From Escherichia coli (GTDB taxonomy: Bacteria; Pseudomonadota; Gammaproteobacteria; Enterobacterales; Enterobacteriaceae): 64,000 nucleotides of DNA. Shown here in pieces: positions 19,541 through 35,430 of the stretch. The stretch's first letter is position 1. The number at the start of each line of letters is the position of its first letter. Under the pieces are notes generated by a model. It was not told the origin of the DNA, did no database searches, and was given only the letters and a program-made list of their open reading frames with translations. The stretch lies in the NCBI RefSeq assembly GCF_002854065.1, contig NZ_CP024147.1, one strand, 5' to 3'. The translations under genes and the position numbers were made by a program.

Positions 19541-20836
19541 ATGTCCACAATTACATTGTTATGCATTGCGTTAACTGGCGTAATCATGCTGTTGCTGCTG
19601 GTCATCAAGGCAAAGGTACAACCATTCGTTGCTCTGCTCCTCGTCAGCCTGTTAGTCGCACTTGCGGCGGGTATACCGGCGGGCGAAGTGGGTAAAGTGA
19701 TGATCGCCGGGATGGGCGGTGTGCTTGGTTCCGTCACTATTATTATTGGTCTGGGCGCTATGCTGGGGCGTATGATCGAACACTCTGGTGGTGCAGAGTC
19801 ACTGGCTAATTATTTCAGTCGCAAGTTAGGTGACAAACGAACTATCGCTGCGCTGACTCTGGCAGCGTTCTTCCTCGGTATTCCCGTCTTCTTTGATGTC
19901 GGCTTTATTATTCTTGCGCCAATCATTTACGGTTTTGCCAAGGTTGCCAAAATATCGCCACTCAAATTTGGCCTGCCTGTCGCTGGGATCATGCTAACTG
20001 TACATGTGGCGGTACCGCCGCATCCAGGCCCTGTCGCCGCAGCAGGGTTACTCCACGCAGACATCGGCTGGCTAACCATCATCGGTATTGCGATTTCTAT
20101 TCCCGTAGGGATTGTTGGCTACTTTGCAGCGAAAATAATCAATAAGCGCCAATATGCGATGTCGGTGGAAGTACTGGAACAGATGCAACTGGCTCCGGCC
20201 AGTGAGGAAGGCGCGACAAAATTAAGCGATAAAATAAATCCACCGGGCGTCGCGCTGGTCACCTCGCTAATTGTTATTCCTATCGCGATTATCATGGCGG
20301 GTACGGTTTCCGCAACACTGATGCCGCCTTCGCATCCCCTGCTTGGTACGCTACAGCTGATCGGCTCACCAATGGTAGCTCTAATGATTGCGCTGGTGCT
20401 GGCATTCTGGTTATTGGCTTTACGTCGCGGCTGGAGCTTACAACACACCAGCGACATTATGGGCTCAGCGCTTCCTACTGCGGCGGTAGTGATTTTGGTT
20501 ACTGGTGCTGGAGGGGTATTTGGCAAAGTGCTGGTGGAATCGGGCGTCGGCAAAGCCCTTGCCAACATGTTACAAATGATTGACCTGCCTCTGTTACCAG
20601 CCGCATTTATTATTTCACTGGCGCTGCGTGCATCGCAGGGGTCAGCAACCGTAGCAATACTGACAACCGGCGGGTTACTCTCAGAAGCGGTGATGGGATT
20701 GAATCCGATTCAGTGCGTATTGGTGACGCTGGCAGCCTGCTTTGGTGGGCTTGGTGCGTCACATATTAATGACTCAGGGTTCTGGATTGTGACCAAATAT
20801 CTGGGATTGTCGGTAGCAGACGGTCTGAAAACCTAG
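19541..20836 (+). CDS. ygbN: GntP-family permease, truncated by premature amber codon
   Basis: 431-aa ORF ends at TAG 20834-20836; same frame continues 22 hydrophobic codons (TVLTTILGFTGFLITWCVWAVI) to TGA at 20903-20905. Confidence 0.8.
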   Translation: MSTITLLCIALTGVIMLLLLVIKAKVQPFVALLLVSLLVALAAGIPAGEVGKVMIAGMGGVLGSVTIIIGLGAMLGRMIEHSGGAESLANYFSRKLGDKRTIAALTLAAFFLGIPVFFDVGFIILAPIIYGFAKVAKISPLKFGLPVAGIMLTVHVAVPPHPGPVAAAGLLHADIGWLTIIGIAISIPVGIVGYFAAKIINKRQYAMSVEVLEQMQLAPASEEGATKLSDKINPPGVALVTSLIVIPIAIIMAGTVSATLMPPSHPLLGTLQLIGSPMVALMIALVLAFWLLALRRGWSLQHTSDIMGSALPTAAVVILVTGAGGVFGKVLVESGVGKALANMLQMIDLPLLPAAFIISLALRASQGSATVAILTTGGLLSEAVMGLNPIQCVLVTLAACFGGLGASHINDSGFWIVTKYLGLSVADGLKT

Positions 20837-20913
20837 ACAGTGTTAACGACCATTCTCGGTTTTACCGGATTCTTAATTACCTGGTGCGTATGGGCGGTAA
20901 TTTGACCTTAATA

Positions 20914-20946
20914 AAAAGGTCCGATGAGCATCGGACCTTTTATTTA
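20914..20946. terminator. Bidirectional intrinsic terminator between ygbN and ecdD
   Basis: Perfect hairpin aaaaggtccgatg-agc-atcggacctttt flanked by A-run and T-run. Confidence 0.45.
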
Positions 20947-21180
20947 GCGCTTATCTGCCGCCAGCAGCGGCGGAATGCTCGGCACCATTGGCGCGTCATC
21001 AATATCTTTCTGCGTCATGCGGAACTCTTCGGGATAATGTTCGCGGCTGGTACGGCGCAGCGGTTCGGTATCGCGCCAGGTATAAAGGCAATGCTGGCAC
21101 TGATATACCGTCCAGACATCTTTCACCGGCGATTTCGCCATCACTTCAATCTGTTCATCGGCACAACGTGGACAAATCAT
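20944..21180 (-). CDS. ecdD: Phenolic acid decarboxylase small subunit D
   Basis: 78-aa ORF with CPRC...CQHC zinc-ribbon motifs, downstream of UbiD-like gene. Confidence 0.8.
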   Translation of the reverse strand: MICPRCADEQIEVMAKSPVKDVWTVYQCQHCLYTWRDTEPLRRTSREHYPEEFRMTQKDIDDAPMVPSIPPLLAADKR

Positions 21181-21190
21181 CTTCTTCTCC

Positions 21191-22618
21191 TTATTTACGT
21201 GCAGCCAGCATAGCGGTCAGTTTTTCAGCCCAGGCTTTGGTTTCCGGCAAATCCACCACCGGCTGGCTGTAGTGACCACGGTTGTCCGGGGCGACAGGCG
21301 TGGTGGCGTCGATAATCAGCTTGTCGGTGATCCCCGCCGGGCTTGAGCCAGGGTCGAGTTCCAGCACGGACATATTCGGCAACTGCACCAAATCCCCTGC
21401 CGGGTTCACTTTCGAGGAGAGCGCCCACATCACCTGCGGCAGGTTGAACGGATCAACGTCTTCATCGACCATAATCACCATCTTCACGTAGCCCAGACCG
21501 TGCGGCGTGGTCATCGCGCGCAGGCCCACCGCGCGGGCAAAGCCGCCGTAGCGTTTTTTGGTGGAGATAATCGCCAGCAGGCCGTGGGTGTACATGGCGT
21601 TTACCGCCTGCACTTCCGGGAACTCGGCTTTCAGTTGTTGATATAGCGGTACGCAGGTGGCTGGCCCCATCAGGTAGTCGATTTCGGTCCACGGCATGCC
21701 GAGGTACAGCGATTCGAAAATCGGCCTGGTGCGGTAAGAGACTTTATCGATGCGCACCACGGTCATGTTACGCCCGCCGGAGTAGTGTCCGGTAAACTCA
21801 CCGAACGGCCCTTCGATTTCGCGTTTACGGCTTTCGATGACCCCTTCGAGGATCGCTTCTGAACCCCACGGCACATCAAAACCGGTCAGCGGGGCGGTGG
21901 CGATCGGGTACGAGCTTTCACGCAGCGCGCCTGCCATTTCATACTCAGACTGATCGTATTTCAGCGGCGTGGCCCCCATCAGCGTGATGATCGGATCGTT
22001 ACCGAGCGTGATCGCAATCGGCAGATCTTCACCGCGCTCTTCTGCTTTATGCAGATGCAGGGCGATATCGTGCATCGGCACCGGTTGCAGGCCGAGCTTA
22101 CGCTTGCCCTTCACTTCCATGCGGTAGATGCCGACGTTCTGCTTGCCGAAGTTATCCGGGTCGAGCGGATCGCGGGAAACCACGCACGCTTTGTCGAGAT
22201 AGAAACCGCCATCACCGTCGTTTAAACGAAACAGCGGCAGGATATCGAACAGATTAATCTCGTCACCATCGACGGTGTTCTGCGCCCAGGCTGGATTGGC
22301 GCGGCGCTCCGGGGCAATCGGGAAGTTATCCCAGCGGCGGATAAACTCATCAATCTGTTTTTTAACCGGGGTGTTTGGCGGCAGGCCCAAGGAAATCGCG
22401 TGGTTCTGCCAGGAACCGATGGTATTCATCGCCACGCGGGCATCGGTAAAACCGCGAATATTATCAAACCACAGCGCCGGTGCACCATCGCCGATACGCC
22501 CGGTGGCGTTGGCAGCGGCAGCCAGATCCGGTTCCGCGTTCACCTCTTCGCTGATTTTCAGTAACTGGCCGTGGTCATCAAGCGCCTGTAAAAAGCTGCG
22601 TAAATCATCAAATGCCAT
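21191..22618 (-). CDS. ecdC: UbiD-family phenolic acid decarboxylase subunit C
   Basis: 475-aa ORF, UbiD-family decarboxylase. Confidence 0.85.
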   Translation of the reverse strand: MAFDDLRSFLQALDDHGQLLKISEEVNAEPDLAAAANATGRIGDGAPALWFDNIRGFTDARVAMNTIGSWQNHAISLGLPPNTPVKKQIDEFIRRWDNFPIAPERRANPAWAQNTVDGDEINLFDILPLFRLNDGDGGFYLDKACVVSRDPLDPDNFGKQNVGIYRMEVKGKRKLGLQPVPMHDIALHLHKAEERGEDLPIAITLGNDPIITLMGATPLKYDQSEYEMAGALRESSYPIATAPLTGFDVPWGSEAILEGVIESRKREIEGPFGEFTGHYSGGRNMTVVRIDKVSYRTRPIFESLYLGMPWTEIDYLMGPATCVPLYQQLKAEFPEVQAVNAMYTHGLLAIISTKKRYGGFARAVGLRAMTTPHGLGYVKMVIMVDEDVDPFNLPQVMWALSSKVNPAGDLVQLPNMSVLELDPGSSPAGITDKLIIDATTPVAPDNRGHYSQPVVDLPETKAWAEKLTAMLAARK

Positions 22619-23211
22619 TATTCATTCTCCTGAGAAAAATTCCGGGCCTGCGGCAATCCTTGCCAGCGCCTGGCGTAGGGATGTTCAAGGCCAAATTGAT
22701 CCAGCACGCGGGCTACCACGTGGTGGACAATGTCATCTACCGTTTCGGGATGGTTATAAAAGGCAGGCATCGGCGGCACCATCGCCACGCCCATGCGTGA
22801 AAGTGCGAGCATATTTTCGAGATGGATGGTGTTAAGCGGCATTTCACGCGGCACCAGTACCAGTTTGCGGCCTTCTTTGAGCACGACGTCCGCCGCGCGC
22901 CCTACCAGGCCATCGGCGTAACCAGCGCGGATACCGGCGAGCGTTTTCATACTGCACGGAATAACGATCATGCCGTCGGTACGAAAGGAACCTGAGGAGA
23001 TGGTCGCCGCCTGATCCGCCGGGTTATGGCTGAAGTCAGCGAGGGCAGCAACATCGCGGGCGCTGTAAGGCGTTTCCAGTTCAATGGTGGTTTTCGCCCA
23101 CTTCGACATCACCAGATGAGTCTCGATATTCGGCATCTCCTGCAGCGCTTGCAGTAATGCCACACCAAGAGGCGCACCGGTAGCCCCTGTCATCCCGACG
23201 ATCAGTTTCAT
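22618..23211 (-). CDS. ecdB: UbiX-like flavin prenyltransferase, decarboxylase subunit B
   Basis: 197-aa ORF starting MKLIVGMTGATGA, flavoprotein fold; overlaps ecdC start. Confidence 0.85.
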   Translation of the reverse strand: MKLIVGMTGATGAPLGVALLQALQEMPNIETHLVMSKWAKTTIELETPYSARDVAALADFSHNPADQAATISSGSFRTDGMIVIPCSMKTLAGIRAGYADGLVGRAADVVLKEGRKLVLVPREMPLNTIHLENMLALSRMGVAMVPPMPAFYNHPETVDDIVHHVVARVLDQFGLEHPYARRWQGLPQARNFSQENE

Positions 23212-23324
23212 TGCTTACTCTCTTAATTGTTCGTATACGAACGTTATTATTAAAATACGCCTCTGTTCTCATTGCGGCAAGCACTGAAAAGTAACAACAT
23301 CCCCTTCGTCACTGAAAAACCGCT

Positions 23325-23765
23325 ATGATAGCGGCAGATAGTTTGCCCGGAGTTTACATGGCGTTACGAAATAAAGCGTTCCATCAGTTACGACAGCTTT
23401 TTCAGCAGCACACATCTCGCTGGCAGCACGAGTTACCTGACCTGACCAAACCACAGTATGCGGTGATGCGTGCCATTGCTGATAAGCCTGGTATCGAACA
23501 GGTGGCACTGATAGAAGCAGCAGTCAGCACCAAAGCAACGCTGGCAGAAATGTTGGCAAGAATGGAAAATCGTGGCTTAGTCAGACGTGAACATGACGCC
23601 GCTGATAAGCGGCGACGCTTTGTCTGGCTGACTGCCGAAGGAGAAAAGATACTTGCTGCGGCGATACCGATTGGTGACAGCGTGGATGAGGAATTTTTGG
23701 GGCGTTTGAGTGCAGAAGAGCAGGAGCTGTTTATGCAGCTGGTGCGCAAGATGATGAACACATAG
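23325..23765 (+). CDS. MarR/SlyA-family transcriptional regulator, divergent from ecdBCD
   Basis: 146-aa ORF with winged-helix MarR signature. Confidence 0.75.
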   Translation: MIAADSLPGVYMALRNKAFHQLRQLFQQHTSRWQHELPDLTKPQYAVMRAIADKPGIEQVALIEAAVSTKATLAEMLARMENRGLVRREHDAADKRRRFVWLTAEGEKILAAAIPIGDSVDEEFLGRLSAEEQELFMQLVRKMMNT

Positions 23766-23837
23766 GATGCAAATTGCCGGGTAGGACGCTGACGTGTCTT
23801 ATCCAGGCGACAAAAACACATGCTTCCCAAACAAAAG

Positions 23838-23872
23838 AAAAAAGGCCAGCCTCGCTTGAGACTGGCCTTTCT
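23838..23872 (-). terminator. rpoS intrinsic terminator
   Basis: Minus strand: GGCCAGTCTCAAGCGAGGCTGGCC hairpin followed by TTTTTTCTTTTG. Confidence 0.5.
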
Positions 23873-23885
23873 GACAGATGCTTAC

Positions 23886-24878
23886 TTATTCGCGGAACAG
23901 CGCTTCGATATTCAGCCCCTGCGTTTGCAGGATTTCGCGCAAACGGCGCAGGCCTTCAACCTGAATCTGGCGAACACGTTCACGGGTGAGGCCAATTTCA
24001 CGACCTACATCTTCCAGTGTTGCCGCTTCGTACCCAAGCAAACCGAATCGACGTGCCAGCACTTCACGCTGTTTGGCGTTCAGTTCGAACAGCCATTTGA
24101 CGATGCTCTGCTTCATATCGTCATCTTGCGTGGTATCTTCCGGACCGTTCTCTTTTTCATCGGCCAGGATGTCCAGCAACGCTTTTTCGGAATCACCACC
24201 CAGCGGGGTGTCTACCGAGGTAATGCGCTCGTTAAGACGAAGCATACGGCTGACGTCATCAACTGGCTTATCCAGTTGCTCTGCGATCTCTTCCGCACTT
24301 GGTTCATGGTCCAGCTTATGGGACAACTCACGTGCGGTTCGCAGGTAAACGTTCAGCTCCTTTACGATGTGAATCGGCAAACGAATAGTACGGGTTTGGT
24401 TCATAATCGCCCGTTCAATCGTCTGGCGAATCCACCAGGTTGCGTATGTTGAGAAGCGGAAACCACGTTCCGGGTCAAACTTCTCTACCGCGCGGATCAG
24501 CCCCAGGTTGCCCTCTTCGATAAGGTCCAGCAACGCCAGACCACGATTGCCATAACGGCGGGCAATTTTTACCACCAGACGCAAGTTACTCTCGATCATC
24601 CGGCGGCGAGAGGCGACATCTCCACGCAGTGCGCGACGCGCAAAATAAACTTCTTCTTCGGCCGTTAACAGTGGTGAATAACCAATCTCACCAAGGTAAA
24701 GCTGAGTCGCGTCCAACACACGCTGTGTGGCTCCCTGCGATAACAGTTCCTCTTCGGCCAAATCGTTATCACTGGGTTCCTCTTCTACTAAGGCCTTTTC
24801 GTCAAAAACCTCAACTCCGTTCTCATCAAATTCCGCATCTTCATTTAAATCATGAACTTTCAGCGTATTCTGACTCAT
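23886..24878 (-). CDS. rpoS: RNA polymerase sigma factor RpoS (sigma38), full length
   Basis: Start at [17 protein letters not shown] inside longer ORF; 330 aa; codon 33 is GAG, no internal stop. Confidence 0.95.
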
Positions 24879-24940
24879 AAGGTGGCTCCTACCCGTGATC
24901 CCTTGACGGAACATTCAAGCAAAAGCCTGGTTCCGCCGAT

Positions 24941-26080
24941 TTATCGCTGCGGCAAATAACGCAGCGGGTTTACGGATTTCCCCTTGTAACGAATTTCAAA
25001 ATGCAAGCGTGTTGAACTGGTTCCGGTGCTACCCATGGTTGCTATTTTTTGCCCCGCCTTCACTTCTTGTTGTTCCCGGACCAGCATTGTGTCGTTATGG
25101 GCGTAGGCACTCAGGTAATCATCATTATGTTTGATGATAATCAGATTACCGTAGCCGCGCAGCGCGTTACCGGCATAAACAACGCGGCCATCTGCGGTCG
25201 CGATAATTGCCTGTCCTTTGCTGCCTGCGATATCAATCCCCTTGTTGCCCCCCTCAGAAGCGCCAAAGGTTTCGATCACTTTGCCCTCAGTCGGCCAGCG
25301 CCAGGTGGAGATAGGCGTACTGGTTGATGTACTGCTGACAGTCGGCTCGGTTGTGCTTGCTGTTGGTACCGTTACAGGCGCTGTGACCGTGGTCGCAGTT
25401 GGCTTGTTGTTCGGCAACATTTTGTTAGCACTCTGTTCACCCGAAGACTCAGAATACGTAATTGTCGGTTGCGACGCAACAGCAACGGTGGAATTTTGTG
25501 CAGGCTTGATCACAACTCCTTGCTCTGCTGCGTCGGCCTGGGTAATGGCATTTCCGCCAGTGATTGGCGTACCGGAAGCATTACCCACCTGTAAGGTCTG
25601 ACCGACGTTCAGCGCGTATGGTGCCTGAATATTGTTGCGCTGAGCAAGGTCACGGAAATCGTTGCCAGTAATCCAGGCGATATAGAAAAGTGTGTCGCCT
25701 TTTTTCACGGTATAGGTACTGCCGCTATAACTGCCTTTCGGAATGTTCCCATACTGACGGTTATAGACGATGCGTCCGTTTTCCATCTGTACCGGCTGCT
25801 GAGCTACTGGCTGCACTGGCTGGATTTGCGGTTGTTGAGTAGCCTGAATTTGTGGCTGCTGTACCGGCTGAATTTGCGGTTGCTGGGCTGTAGACGTCGT
25901 CCCCATTTTCGGCGGCGGCGTAATCAACATACCAGAATTGGTATTTGCAGGCGCATTGCCATTAACGGAGCTGACCGGTGCCGGTGGATTTGAAGTGTCA
26001 GAACAGCCTGCCAGCCATAGCGAAACCAGTGACAAAGCCGCAATGCGGCGAACGGTGAATTTTGGGCTTCCCGCGCTCAT
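24941..26080 (-). CDS. nlpD: Murein hydrolase activator lipoprotein NlpD
   Basis: 379-aa ORF, lipobox LAGC, QPQIQ repeats, LysM and M23 peptidase domains. Confidence 0.9.
25450..25479 (-). promoter_or_regulatory. Major rpoS promoter inside nlpD coding sequence
   Basis: Minus strand TTGCGT-18nt-TATTCT, about 565 nt upstream of rpoS ATG, consistent with the known long 5'UTR. Confidence 0.5.
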
Positions 26081-26219
26081 TTATCCCCCAGGAAAAATTG
26101 GTTAATAACCAGTGACATAATTACCGTGCAAGGCACCATACTGAACACTGGAAAAGATGTTCACGATACGCTGACCTGCGGCAAAATAACCAGGAAAAAT
26201 CCAGGTATTTCCTCACGTT

Positions 26220-27581
<1,362 letters not shown>

Positions 27582-27601
<20 letters not shown>

Positions 27602-28631
27602 AATCACCTGTTGTGTTGATAAGTTCCCTGACAACGCTGGTTGCAAAACTACCCGCCGGAAGCCAGAAACGGATCTCTACGGTGACGTCATCCCACCAAT
27701 TCCAGCTTAATTGTTGCGGATACAGCAGCATCGCTCTGCGCGCGGCTTCAACTTTTTCGCGCACCAGTAAAGCTTGTAATTCAGTTTCTGCGGCGACAGC
27801 TGCTTGTTCGAATGCCAGCGCTTCACGCTGAGTTCCCCATTCGCCACTGCCCGGCAATGCGGCTGTTATCATCAGCTCTTTATCGTTGACGCGACGCTGT
27901 AATTCCGCCAGTTCTTCGGTGGTTGCTACAAACCAGCTACCACGTCCGGCTAATTGTAGCGCATCGCCGTCAACAACTTGATTAACGTCTGCTTTTTTGA
28001 GGCGCTCAGCAACAATCTGATTAAACAACGCACTGCGGGCTGCCGACAACCAAAAACTCCGTTTATTGCGATCGCGCACCGGAGTATTGGTTTGCGCCCA
28101 GCGCAGCGCGCCCTGCAAGTTGCTACCGCCAATCCCAAAACGTTGGGCACCGAAGTAGTTCGGTACACCTTTTACGCAAATATCGATCAGACGTTGTTCA
28201 ACGTCATCGCGATTGCTCACTTCGCGCAGAACCAGGGTAAAGGCGTTACCTTTCAGCGCCCCTAAACGCAGCTTGCGCTTGTGCCGCGTATACTCCAGCA
28301 CCTGGCAGCCTTCCAATTGAAAGGCGCTCAGATCGGGCATTTCCTTGCCCGGCACGCGAGCGCATAACCACTGTTCTGTAACAGCATGTTTGTCTTTTTG
28401 CCCAGCAAAGCTGACTTCACGGGCATGAATTTTCAGGAATTTCGCCAGTGCATCCGCCACAAAACGGGTATTGCAGCCGTTTTTGAGGATTCTAACCAGA
28501 ATATGCTCACCTTCACCATCAGGCTCAAAGCCCAAATCTTCCACCACCACAAAGTCTTCCGGATTGGCTTTCAGCAGCCCGGTGCCTTGCGGTTTACCGT
28601 GGAGGTAAGTGAGATTATCAAACTCAATCAT
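27582..28631 (-). CDS. truD: tRNA pseudouridine13 synthase TruD
   Basis: 349-aa ORF, recognised TruD. Confidence 0.9.
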
Positions 28632-29107
28632 TTTGTTGCCTTAATGAGTAGCGCCACCGCTTCACAGGCAATCCCTTCCCCACGTCCGGTAAATCCAAGT
28701 TTTTCCGTAGTAGTGGCTTTCACGTTAACATCATCCATATGGCAGCCGAGATCTTCGGCAATAAACACGCGCATTTGTGGAATGTGCGGCAACATCTTCG
28801 GTGCCTGAGCGATGATAGTGACATCGACGTTGCCAAGGGTATAACCCTTCGCCTGAATACGACGCCAGGCTTCGCGTAGCAGCTCGCGGCTGTCGGCACC
28901 TTTAAATGCCGGATCGGTATCCGGGAACAGCTTGCCGATATCCCCCAGCGCCGCCGCGCCAAGCAATGCATCGGTCAACGCATGGAGCGCCACGTCGCCA
29001 TCAGAATGCGCCAGCAATCCTTTTTCGTAAGGAATGCGTACGCCACCAATGATAATTGGGCCTTCACCGCCAAAGGCGTGTACGTCAAAACCGTGTCCAA
29101 TTCGCAT
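28628..29107 (-). CDS. ispF: 2-C-methyl-D-erythritol 2,4-cyclodiphosphate synthase
   Basis: 159-aa ORF starting [14 protein letters not shown]. Confidence 0.9.
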
Positions 29108-29817
29108 TATGTATTCTCCTGATGGATGGTTCGGGTGAGGTAAAACTCGGCCAGTGCCAAATCCTCCGGGCGCGTGACTTTAATGTTATCCGCACGGCCT
29201 TCGACCAACTGAGGATGGAATCCGCAATATTCCAGCGCCGAGGCTTCGTCGGTAATAGTCGCGCCTTCATTTAGAGCGCGCGTCAGACAGTCATGTAACA
29301 GCTCACGAGGGAAAAATTGCGGCGTCAGCGCGTGCCATAAGCCGTTGCGATCAACGGTATGAGCAATGGCATTTTTGCCCGGTTCGGCACGTTTCATAGT
29401 ATCGCGCACTGGTGCGGCGAGGATCCCCCCCGTGCGGCTGGTTTCGCTCAACGCCAACAATCGCGCCAGGTCATCCTGATGCAGACAAGGACGAGCGGCG
29501 TCATGCACCAATACCCACTGCGCGTCGCCAGCGGCTTTCAAACCTGCCAGCACGGAATCGGCACGCTCATCACCGCCATCTACAACGGTGATTTGCGGAT
29601 GATTCGCCAGAGGAAGTTGTGCAAAACGGCTATCGCCAGGACTTATGGCAATGACGACACGTTTCACCCGGGGATGCGCCAGCAGCGCATGCACCGAGTG
29701 TTCAAGAATGGTTTGATTACCGATTGAGAGATATTGCTTAGGACATTCCGTTTGCATTCGACGGCCAAATCCGGCCGCCGGAACCACGGCGCAAACATCC
29801 AAATGAGTGGTTGCCAT
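29107..29817 (-). CDS. ispD: 2-C-methyl-D-erythritol 4-phosphate cytidylyltransferase
   Basis: 236-aa ORF with [11 protein letters not shown] motif. Confidence 0.9.
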
Positions 29818-29835
29818 GTTAATTCCCGGGCTGAT

Positions 29836-30147
29836 TTATCGATTGTTTTGCCCCGCAGACTGTGCGCGCTTCGACGCGTCAGGTACCAGACGATAAAAAG
29901 TTTCGCCCGGCCTGGTCATGCTGAGTTCATTACGCGCACGCTCTTCGAGCGCCTCCTGGCCGCCATTGAGATCGTCAATTTCGGCAAAAAGTTGATCGTT
30001 TCGCGCTTTAAGTTTCGCGTTTGTAGCTTGCTGTGCCGCCACATCATCATTGACGCGGGTATAGTCATGTATACCGTTCTTACCGAACCACAGCGAATAC
30101 TGTAGCCAGACCAGAATAGCCAGCAACAGCAGCGTTAGTTTACCCAT
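29836..30147 (-). CDS. ftsB: Cell division protein FtsB
   Basis: 103-aa ORF, N-terminal TM helix plus coiled coil. Confidence 0.9.
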
Positions 30148-33907: not shown

Positions 33908-34945
33908 ATGTTTTCCGCATTGCGCCACCGTACCGCTGCCCTGGCGCTCGGCGTATGCTTTATTCTCCCCGTACACGCCTCGTCACCTAAACCTGGCGAT
34001 TTTGCTAATACCCAGGCACGACATATTGCTACTTTCTTTCCGGGACGCATGACCGGAACTCCTGCAGAAATGTTATCTGCCGATTATATTCGCCAACAGT
34101 TTCAGCAAATGGGTTATCGCAGTGATATTCGGACATTTAATAGTCGGTATATTTATACCGCCCGCGATAATCGCAAGAGCTGGCATAACGTGACGGGAAG
34201 TACGGTGATTGCCGCTCATGAAGGCAAAGCGCCGCAGCAGATCATCATTATGGCGCATCTGGATACTTACGCCCCGCTGAGCGATGCTGACGCCGATGCC
34301 AATCTCGGCGGGCTGACGTTACAAGGAATGGATGATAACGCCGCAGGTTTAGGTGTCATGCTGGAATTGGCAGAACGCCTGAAAAATACGCCTACCGAGT
34401 ATGGTATTCGATTTGTGGCGACCAGCGGCGAAGAGGAAGGGAAATTAGGCGCTGAGAATTTACTCAAGCGGATGAGTGACACCGAAAAGAAAAATACGCT
34501 GCTGGTGATTAATCTCGATAACTTAATTGTTGGCGATAAATTGTATTTCAACAGCGGTGTAAAAACCCCTGAAGCAGTAAGGAAATTAACGCGCGACAGG
34601 GCGCTGGCAATTGCGCGTAGTCATGGAATTGCCGCAACGACCAATCCGGGTTTGAATAAAAATTATCCGAAAGGCACTGGGTGTTGTAATGACGCAGAAA
34701 TATTCGACAAAGCGGGCATTGCTGTACTTTCGGTGGAAGCGACTAACTGGAATCTTGGGAATAAGGATGGTTATCAGCAACGCGCAAAAACAGCCGCATT
34801 CCCTGCGGGAAATAGCTGGCATGACGTAAGACTGGATAATCAACAGCATATTGATAAGGCACTTCCAGGAAGAATAGAACGTCGCTGCCGTGACGTTATG
34901 CGGATAATGCTACCACTGGTGAAGGAGCTGGCGAAGGCGTCTTGA
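33908..34945 (+). CDS. iap: Alkaline phosphatase isozyme conversion aminopeptidase
   Basis: 345-aa ORF with signal peptide and M28 peptidase features. Confidence 0.85.
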   Translation: MFSALRHRTAALALGVCFILPVHASSPKPGDFANTQARHIATFFPGRMTGTPAEMLSADYIRQQFQQMGYRSDIRTFNSRYIYTARDNRKSWHNVTGSTVIAAHEGKAPQQIIIMAHLDTYAPLSDADADANLGGLTLQGMDDNAAGLGVMLELAERLKNTPTEYGIRFVATSGEEEGKLGAENLLKRMSDTEKKNTLLVINLDNLIVGDKLYFNSGVKTPEAVRKLTRDRALAIARSHGIAATTNPGLNKNYPKGTGCCNDAEIFDKAGIAVLSVEATNWNLGNKDGYQQRAKTAAFPAGNSWHDVRLDNQQHIDKALPGRIERRCRDVMRIMLPLVKELAKAS

Positions 34946-35070: not shown

Positions 35071-35223
35071 CTACTTCTTCGATTCGTAAGCGAGAACTGC
35101 CTTAAACTCCATACCACGCTCTCTGATACTCAACTCACATAACGAGTCGCCTACCATGAGCGTGAATCCCAGTACTGTACAACACAGTACTATGATTGCC
35201 ACAAGGGCATATTTTGTTAGCAT
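35071..35223 (-). CDS. Hok-family type I toxin (hokX-like), intact 50-aa ORF
   Basis: [50 protein letters not shown]: TM helix plus conserved SLCEL...LAYES C-terminus; GGGAGG SD 6 nt upstream. Confidence 0.75.
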
Positions 35224-35430
35224 GTCTTGCCTCCCTGCAAAGAAGAGACTAACATCCGAATTGCTACGTTCGAACGCGAGCCTCAGGTTGATAGAAATAT
35301 CGCCTGGGGCTTTTGTCCATCTGGAACCTCGCGAATGCTTAACGCCAGACAGCCTCAAGCACCCGACGCCATTCTATACCTGATAATTCTTCCAGCGGCG
35401 TTCACGTTTAAAATCAGGAATGCTGCTCGC

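Follow-up and report, generated by a model that had tools for sequence, protein, structure and literature searches.

An intact rpoS33E allele of sigma-S in a natural, non-K-12 lineage of Escherichia coli

The 64,000 nucleotides of Escherichia coli DNA analysed here (contig NZ_CP024147.1, hereafter the window) include the gene for sigma-S, which is almost certainly an intact, wild-type rpoS33E of a natural, non-K-12 E. coli and is expected to be expressed much as in K-12. Codon 33 is GAG and the frame is open over 330 codons, which places the allele in the rpoS33E class and in neither the rpoS33Q nor the rpoS33Am class. It corresponds to the rpoS33E allele of Atlung et al. 2002.

Results

The rpoS reading frame and its product

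The rpoS coding sequence, for sigma-S (sigma-38), occupies 24878..23886 of the minus strand, from the ATG at 24878 to the TAA at 23888..23886, and its 993 nt consist of 330 sense codons followed by the stop. Both the ORF listing and direct translation from the ATG at 24878 give this reading, and direct translation of 24878..23886 finds neither an internal stop nor a frameshift; the gene is thus intact and its ORF runs the full 330 codons, as the initial annotation had claimed. RefSeq places the rpoS start of MG1655, O157:H7 and the closest genomes alike at the ATG at 24878, and a Shine-Dalgarno sequence, AGGAG (24886..24890, minus strand), stands at -12..-8 from this ATG, within the 3' arm of a predicted leader hairpin. 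The mechanical ORF is longer, since an in-frame ATG at 24914 adds 12 codons (24879..24914, minus strand) and brings the count to 342. This upstream ATG has no Shine-Dalgarno sequence of its own and is used by no annotation that we saw. We rejected the 342-codon reading because the annotated relatives all start at 24878 and the Shine-Dalgarno sequence is placed for that start; the 12-codon extension is most likely meaningless.

The product is identified as RpoS by two NCBIfam equivalog models, NF004207 (604.6 bits against a cutoff of 394, covering model positions 1-329 of 329) and TIGR02394 (480.7 bits against a cutoff of 378.7, a full-length match), and in the same NCBIfam search the RpoD, RpoH and SigB models all stayed under their own cutoffs. 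Four Pfam domains score above their gathering scores, namely Sigma70_r1_2 (residues 56-88), r2 (94-163), r3 (174-248) and r4 (262-315). The protein therefore has the architecture of a group-2 sigma-70 factor, with regions 1.2, 2, 3 and 4 and without a long region 1.1 or a non-conserved insert. K173, which is needed for RssB-dependent turnover of sigma-S, and I128 are both the same as in K-12. I128 is the topic of an earlier paper (PMC5405132). Chance is of no concern for this gene call, since the 1,594-base stretch 23886..25479 matches annotated rpoS/nlpD in 5,420 of 5,426 complete E. coli genomes, at an identity of at least 99% in 5,206 of them.

Compared with rpoS of MG1655 (b2741, NP_417221.1; rpoS33Q), which also encodes 330 residues, the window protein is identical at 329 of 330 positions, with Q33E as the sole change. 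The two coding sequences differ at four nucleotides, one in codon 33 and three in the synonymous codons 265, 281 and 330. The rpoS(Am) gene of the W3110 type (RefSeq pseudogene Y75_RS14295) has the same locus and flanks, but there TAG ends the frame after 32 codons where the window reads Glu. The closest likeness is to the natural-isolate RpoS WP_000081550.1, which is annotated in strains 100416 and CUWW06 as well as in O157:H7 TR01, with GAG at codon 33 and the same nlpD-rpoS arrangement, promoter and leader as the window; the coding sequence of TR01 differs from that of the window only synonymously, at nt 795, 819 and 843. Two structures of the sigma-S RNA polymerase holoenzyme could be aligned over the full length, 1-330. 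PDB 5ipl_F has E33 like the window, together with the construct-related S2G and R329L, and PDB 6kj6_F has Q33 like MG1655, with a construct-related N-terminal extension.

Downstream of the gene, 14 nt past the stop, lies an intrinsic terminator-like hairpin with a T-run (23829..23872, minus strand), made up of a 15-pair stem with 7 G-C pairs and then TCTTTTGTTT. A permissive Rfam search of 20000..30000 placed ctRNA_p42d on this hairpin, and we rejected the match as chance (22.6 bits against a gathering score of 50, E = 0.35).

Codon 33 and its frequency among genomes

Codon 33 occupies 24782..24780 on the minus strand and reads CTC on the plus strand. Direct translation and alignment both show it as GAG (Glu), just as the initial annotation had read it, in the context GTA GAA GAG GAA CCC (V-E-E-E-P). 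Since the Pfam region 1.2 spans residues 56-88, residue 33 belongs to the acidic N-terminal tail that precedes it. Over codons 30-36 the window is the same as 100416, CUWW06 and O157:H7 TR01 (TTA GTA GAA GAG GAA CCC AGT), and MG1655 and W3110 match it except at codon 33. That K-12 stocks vary at this codon, another point of the initial annotation, holds for the references used here: CAG (Gln) stands in MG1655 and TAG in W3110, whose rpoS is annotated as a pseudogene with an internal stop.

The frequency of each allele was obtained by a megablast census of 5,426 complete E. coli genomes, using 55-base queries centred on the first base of codon 33. An exact 28-base word was required, thus each query finds only genomes that share its central base. 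In this collection, which over-represents laboratory K-12 derivatives and clinical lineages, 5,058 of the 5,426 genomes have G as the first base of codon 33, and within this class an exact GAG is assured only where the 55-mer is identical, in 4,832 genomes; C (CAG) accounts for 227 genomes and T (amber TAG) for 128. Together the three classes make up 5,413 of the 5,420 genomes with any rpoS match. Among the matches listed, those with C are all MG1655-type or other laboratory-type strains, and those with T are mostly K-12 derivatives (W3110, J53, AG100, HMS174, NCM3722 and S17-1) together with BLR(DE3). The claim that GAG fits natural isolates and non-K-12 lineages is therefore upheld, with G in the great majority of genomes and the C and T listings dominated by K-12 and laboratory strains.

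Glu33 is the majority state. It is probably also the ancestral one: 162 of the matches in the G class show only 90-95% identity across the 55-mer, and the retention of G by such sequence-divergent copies fits G as the ancestral state. TAG and CAG in K-12 are first-base changes that belong to laboratory lineages. This picture agrees with the literature. Citing Atlung 2002 and Subbarayan & Sarkar 2004, PMC2700278 gives codon 33 in K-12 strains as TAG amber, Glu, Tyr or Gln, and describes GAG as common among natural non-K-12 isolates. The same paper reports GAG in all VTEC strains tested, against CAG in MG1655, and PMC1852560 reports it in every isolate analysed there.

Two observations concern the composition of the smaller classes. 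BLR(DE3), a B-strain derivative, shares the amber TAG of K-12, which has been explained by about 85 kb of K-12 DNA, from recA to queE, co-transferred with a recA deletion (PMC5454202). In addition, several records labelled 'mouse gut', 'chicken' or 'Homo sapiens' in the CAG and TAG lists resemble K-12 derivatives, for example by their O16:H48 serotype labels.

The promoter inside nlpD

The nlpD gene (24941..26080, minus strand) has the same 379-codon reading as in K-12 and contains the rpoS promoter and leader; the RefSeq relatives annotate a later nlpD start than this reading, and the NlpD protein of the window is identical to K-12 NlpD. According to PMC10948607, rpoS has two major promoters; the lesser precedes nlpD, and the more important lies within nlpD and starts transcription 567 nt ahead of the rpoS start codon. 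The main promoter in nlpD maps to 25479..25451 on the minus strand, with the -35 hexamer TTGCGT at 25479..25474, a 17-nt spacer and the -10 hexamer TATTCT at 25456..25451, that is, at -601..-573 from the rpoS ATG. It is base-identical to the promoter of MG1655 and W3110, spacer included. The -567 start site falls at 25445, six bases past TATTCT. The range of the initial annotation ended at 25479, and as this is the first base of TTGCGT, that range is bounded by the rpoS stop codon and the -35 element.

The initial annotation had called the promoter inside nlpD recognisable, and this stands in part. A generic sigma-70 consensus scan of 23700..26300 reports no promoter-like site, so that the promoter is recognisable only through its identity to the mapped K-12 promoter and not by such a scan. 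The miss is explained by hexamers far from the consensus, with 3 of 6 matching bases at -35 and 4 of 6 at -10. By analogy with K-12, we infer that the same promoter and start site would be used in the window strain.

The leader and translational control

With the start site of PMC10948607, the rpoS 5' untranslated leader is 567 nt long (24879..25445, minus strand) and lies mostly within the 3' part of nlpD. Only -294, -183 and -162 set it apart from the leader of MG1655 and W3110, and from -161 to -1 the sequences are identical. None of the three changes alters NlpD. Its upstream arm at 24980..25002 (minus strand; -124..-102) is predicted to pair with the Shine-Dalgarno and start-codon region: folding of the RNA from -150 to +30 gives -54.3 kcal/mol (z = -2.2), with -124..-102 paired with the Shine-Dalgarno sequence and AUG. 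This predicted hairpin, which would occlude both, is the expected inhibitory structure. In K-12 the leader arm is a hub for the binding of DsrA, RprA and ArcZ (PMC10948607). The permissive search of 20000..30000 found no Rfam family at threshold on the rpoS leader.

The leader variants bear on the alternative that survives best, namely an open rpoS frame whose sigma-S output is nevertheless attenuated or altered, through leader polymorphisms or through rssB, hfq or sRNA genes, in which case the word intact would overstate function. A pattern search located an AAN-repeat, AACAACAAGAAG, at -196..-185 and AAAAAA at -172..-167, two tracts that we take to be Hfq-binding elements. Variants -183 and -162 flank these tracts, upstream of the sRNA-pairing site, and this, like the three differences from K-12 themselves, speaks for an altered output. 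So does the finding that sigma-S activities vary among natural isolates that are all 33E (PMC1852560). Activity of sigma-S does not follow from an open frame alone, and its level differs among natural isolates through causes outside rpoS. However, none of the variants at -294, -183 and -162 falls within the tracts, the sRNA-pairing arm, the Shine-Dalgarno sequence or the promoter. All three occur in O157:H7 TR01, so they are common natural alleles rather than lesions, and the window protein equals the common natural RpoS. We consider an attenuated or altered output quite improbable, and prefer the reading of an intact, wild-type gene with K-12-like expression.

Neighbourhood and lineage

The gene order surE-pcm-nlpD-rpoS, on the minus strand, is the same in the MG1655 annotation and in the nearest genomes. 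Past the 3' end of rpoS the window departs from K-12. In MG1655, ygbN follows rpoS after 93 bp, whereas the window has a segment of about 2.9 kb there (20940..23800, between ygbN and rpoS), which carries a MarR-family regulator and the B, C and D components of a non-oxidative hydroxyarylic acid decarboxylase. This segment is found in 2,380 of the 5,426 genomes at a coverage of at least 80% (about 44%) and is missing from K-12. Divergence shifts sharply at the 3' end of rpoS, as the segment has only about 96% identity to nearly all its other copies, two genomes alone reaching at least 99%, whereas the adjoining rpoS stretch is at least 99% identical to 5,206 genomes, and this shift suggests a recombination boundary, to judge by the sequence comparison, in the known mutS-rpoS variable region.

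Two further observations were made around these loci. The gene ygbN, for a GntP-family transporter (19541..20905, plus strand), has an in-frame TAG at 20834..20836 where K-12 has TGG (W432*), with the loss of the last 23 residues; it is annotated as a pseudogene with an internal stop in the two closest genomes, and ygbN is thus probably decaying in the lineage of the window. The interval between iap (33908..34945) and cysH (35487 onwards), which in other E. coli including K-12 carries a type I-E CRISPR-Cas locus, holds a hok/sok-type toxin-antitoxin locus at 35071..35364 on the minus strand, with an ORF of the Hok/Gef family and an Rfam match to sok (105 bits against a gathering score of 59). 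No cas genes lie between iap and cysH in the window.

A BLAST search with 24 kb around rpoS returned only five genomes with an identity of at least 99%. Two of them, CUWW06 (wastewater, Thailand) and 100416 (human stool, Gambia), are about 100% identical over this length; in a fixed-offset, base-by-base comparison an indel separates the window from CUWW06 somewhere in the first 48 kb. With so few close genomes, and with natural isolates as the two closest, the window represents a natural and rather sparsely sampled lineage that is not K-12. The non-K-12 origin put forward by the initial annotation is thus supported on grounds independent of codon 33, by the three synonymous rpoS and three 5'-UTR differences, the 2.9 kb segment, hok/sok in the place of CRISPR-Cas and the natural-isolate relatives.

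The same comparisons refute an origin of the window in a GAG-bearing K-12 stock. Such a source is conceivable in itself, as Glu (GAG) does occur at codon 33 in some K-12 strains (PMC2700278), but it would have to accommodate six further nucleotide differences from both MG1655 and W3110 within 1.6 kb, the 2.9 kb decarboxylase/MarR segment where the K-12 gap is 93 bp, hok/sok instead of the CRISPR-Cas locus, and best matches that are natural isolates, with only five genomes at 99% over 24 kb; the flanking sequence and gene content leave it next to no probability. A sequencing or assembly artefact in the GAG reading or in the ORF, which could in principle affect any single sequence and has nothing specific in its favour, is just as exceedingly improbable, because the independent complete genome of 100416 matches the window at every one of the 1,594 bases of 23886..25479, CUWW06 differs in that stretch at one leader base, and 4,832 genomes share the 55-mer around codon 33.

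Discussion

The rpoS gene of the window is best explained as the intact, wild-type sigma-S gene of a natural E. coli. Its mode of expression can be outlined by analogy with K-12. Transcription would start mainly at the promoter inside nlpD and produce an mRNA with a 567-nt leader, whose fold would hide the ribosome-binding site. Under stress, the Hfq-dependent sRNAs DsrA, RprA and ArcZ would open this fold, and the 330-residue sigma-S would then steer RNA polymerase to the sigma-S regulon for the general stress response and stationary phase. We infer that transcription, sRNA-controlled translation and sigma-S activity in the window strain would proceed as they do in K-12.

The allele was read correctly by the initial annotation and is unremarkable, as roughly nine of every ten E. 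coli genomes sequenced have Glu33. That codon 33 is polymorphic, that this variation is confined to K-12 stocks and that GAG is the natural state has been known from the literature since 2002-2004; the census presented here (G in 5,058, C in 227 and T in 128 of 5,426 genomes) gives current numbers for this known polymorphism.

Nearly all mechanistic work on sigma-S rests on the K-12 reference MG1655. Glu33 together with the leader variants at -294, -183 and -162 may shift the synthesis or activity of sigma-S quantitatively relative to MG1655, a speculative notion that we regard as fairly unlikely. If it were true, the translational-control parameters derived for rpoS in K-12 would not be exactly transferable to most wild E. 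coli.

The value of the finding lies in a sanity check and in strain typing: the source is a natural, non-K-12 strain, and its stress regulator gene has been neither lost nor truncated. Judging from the sequence, strains of this type would be expected to have the full sigma-S-dependent resistance to acid, oxidative stress and starvation.
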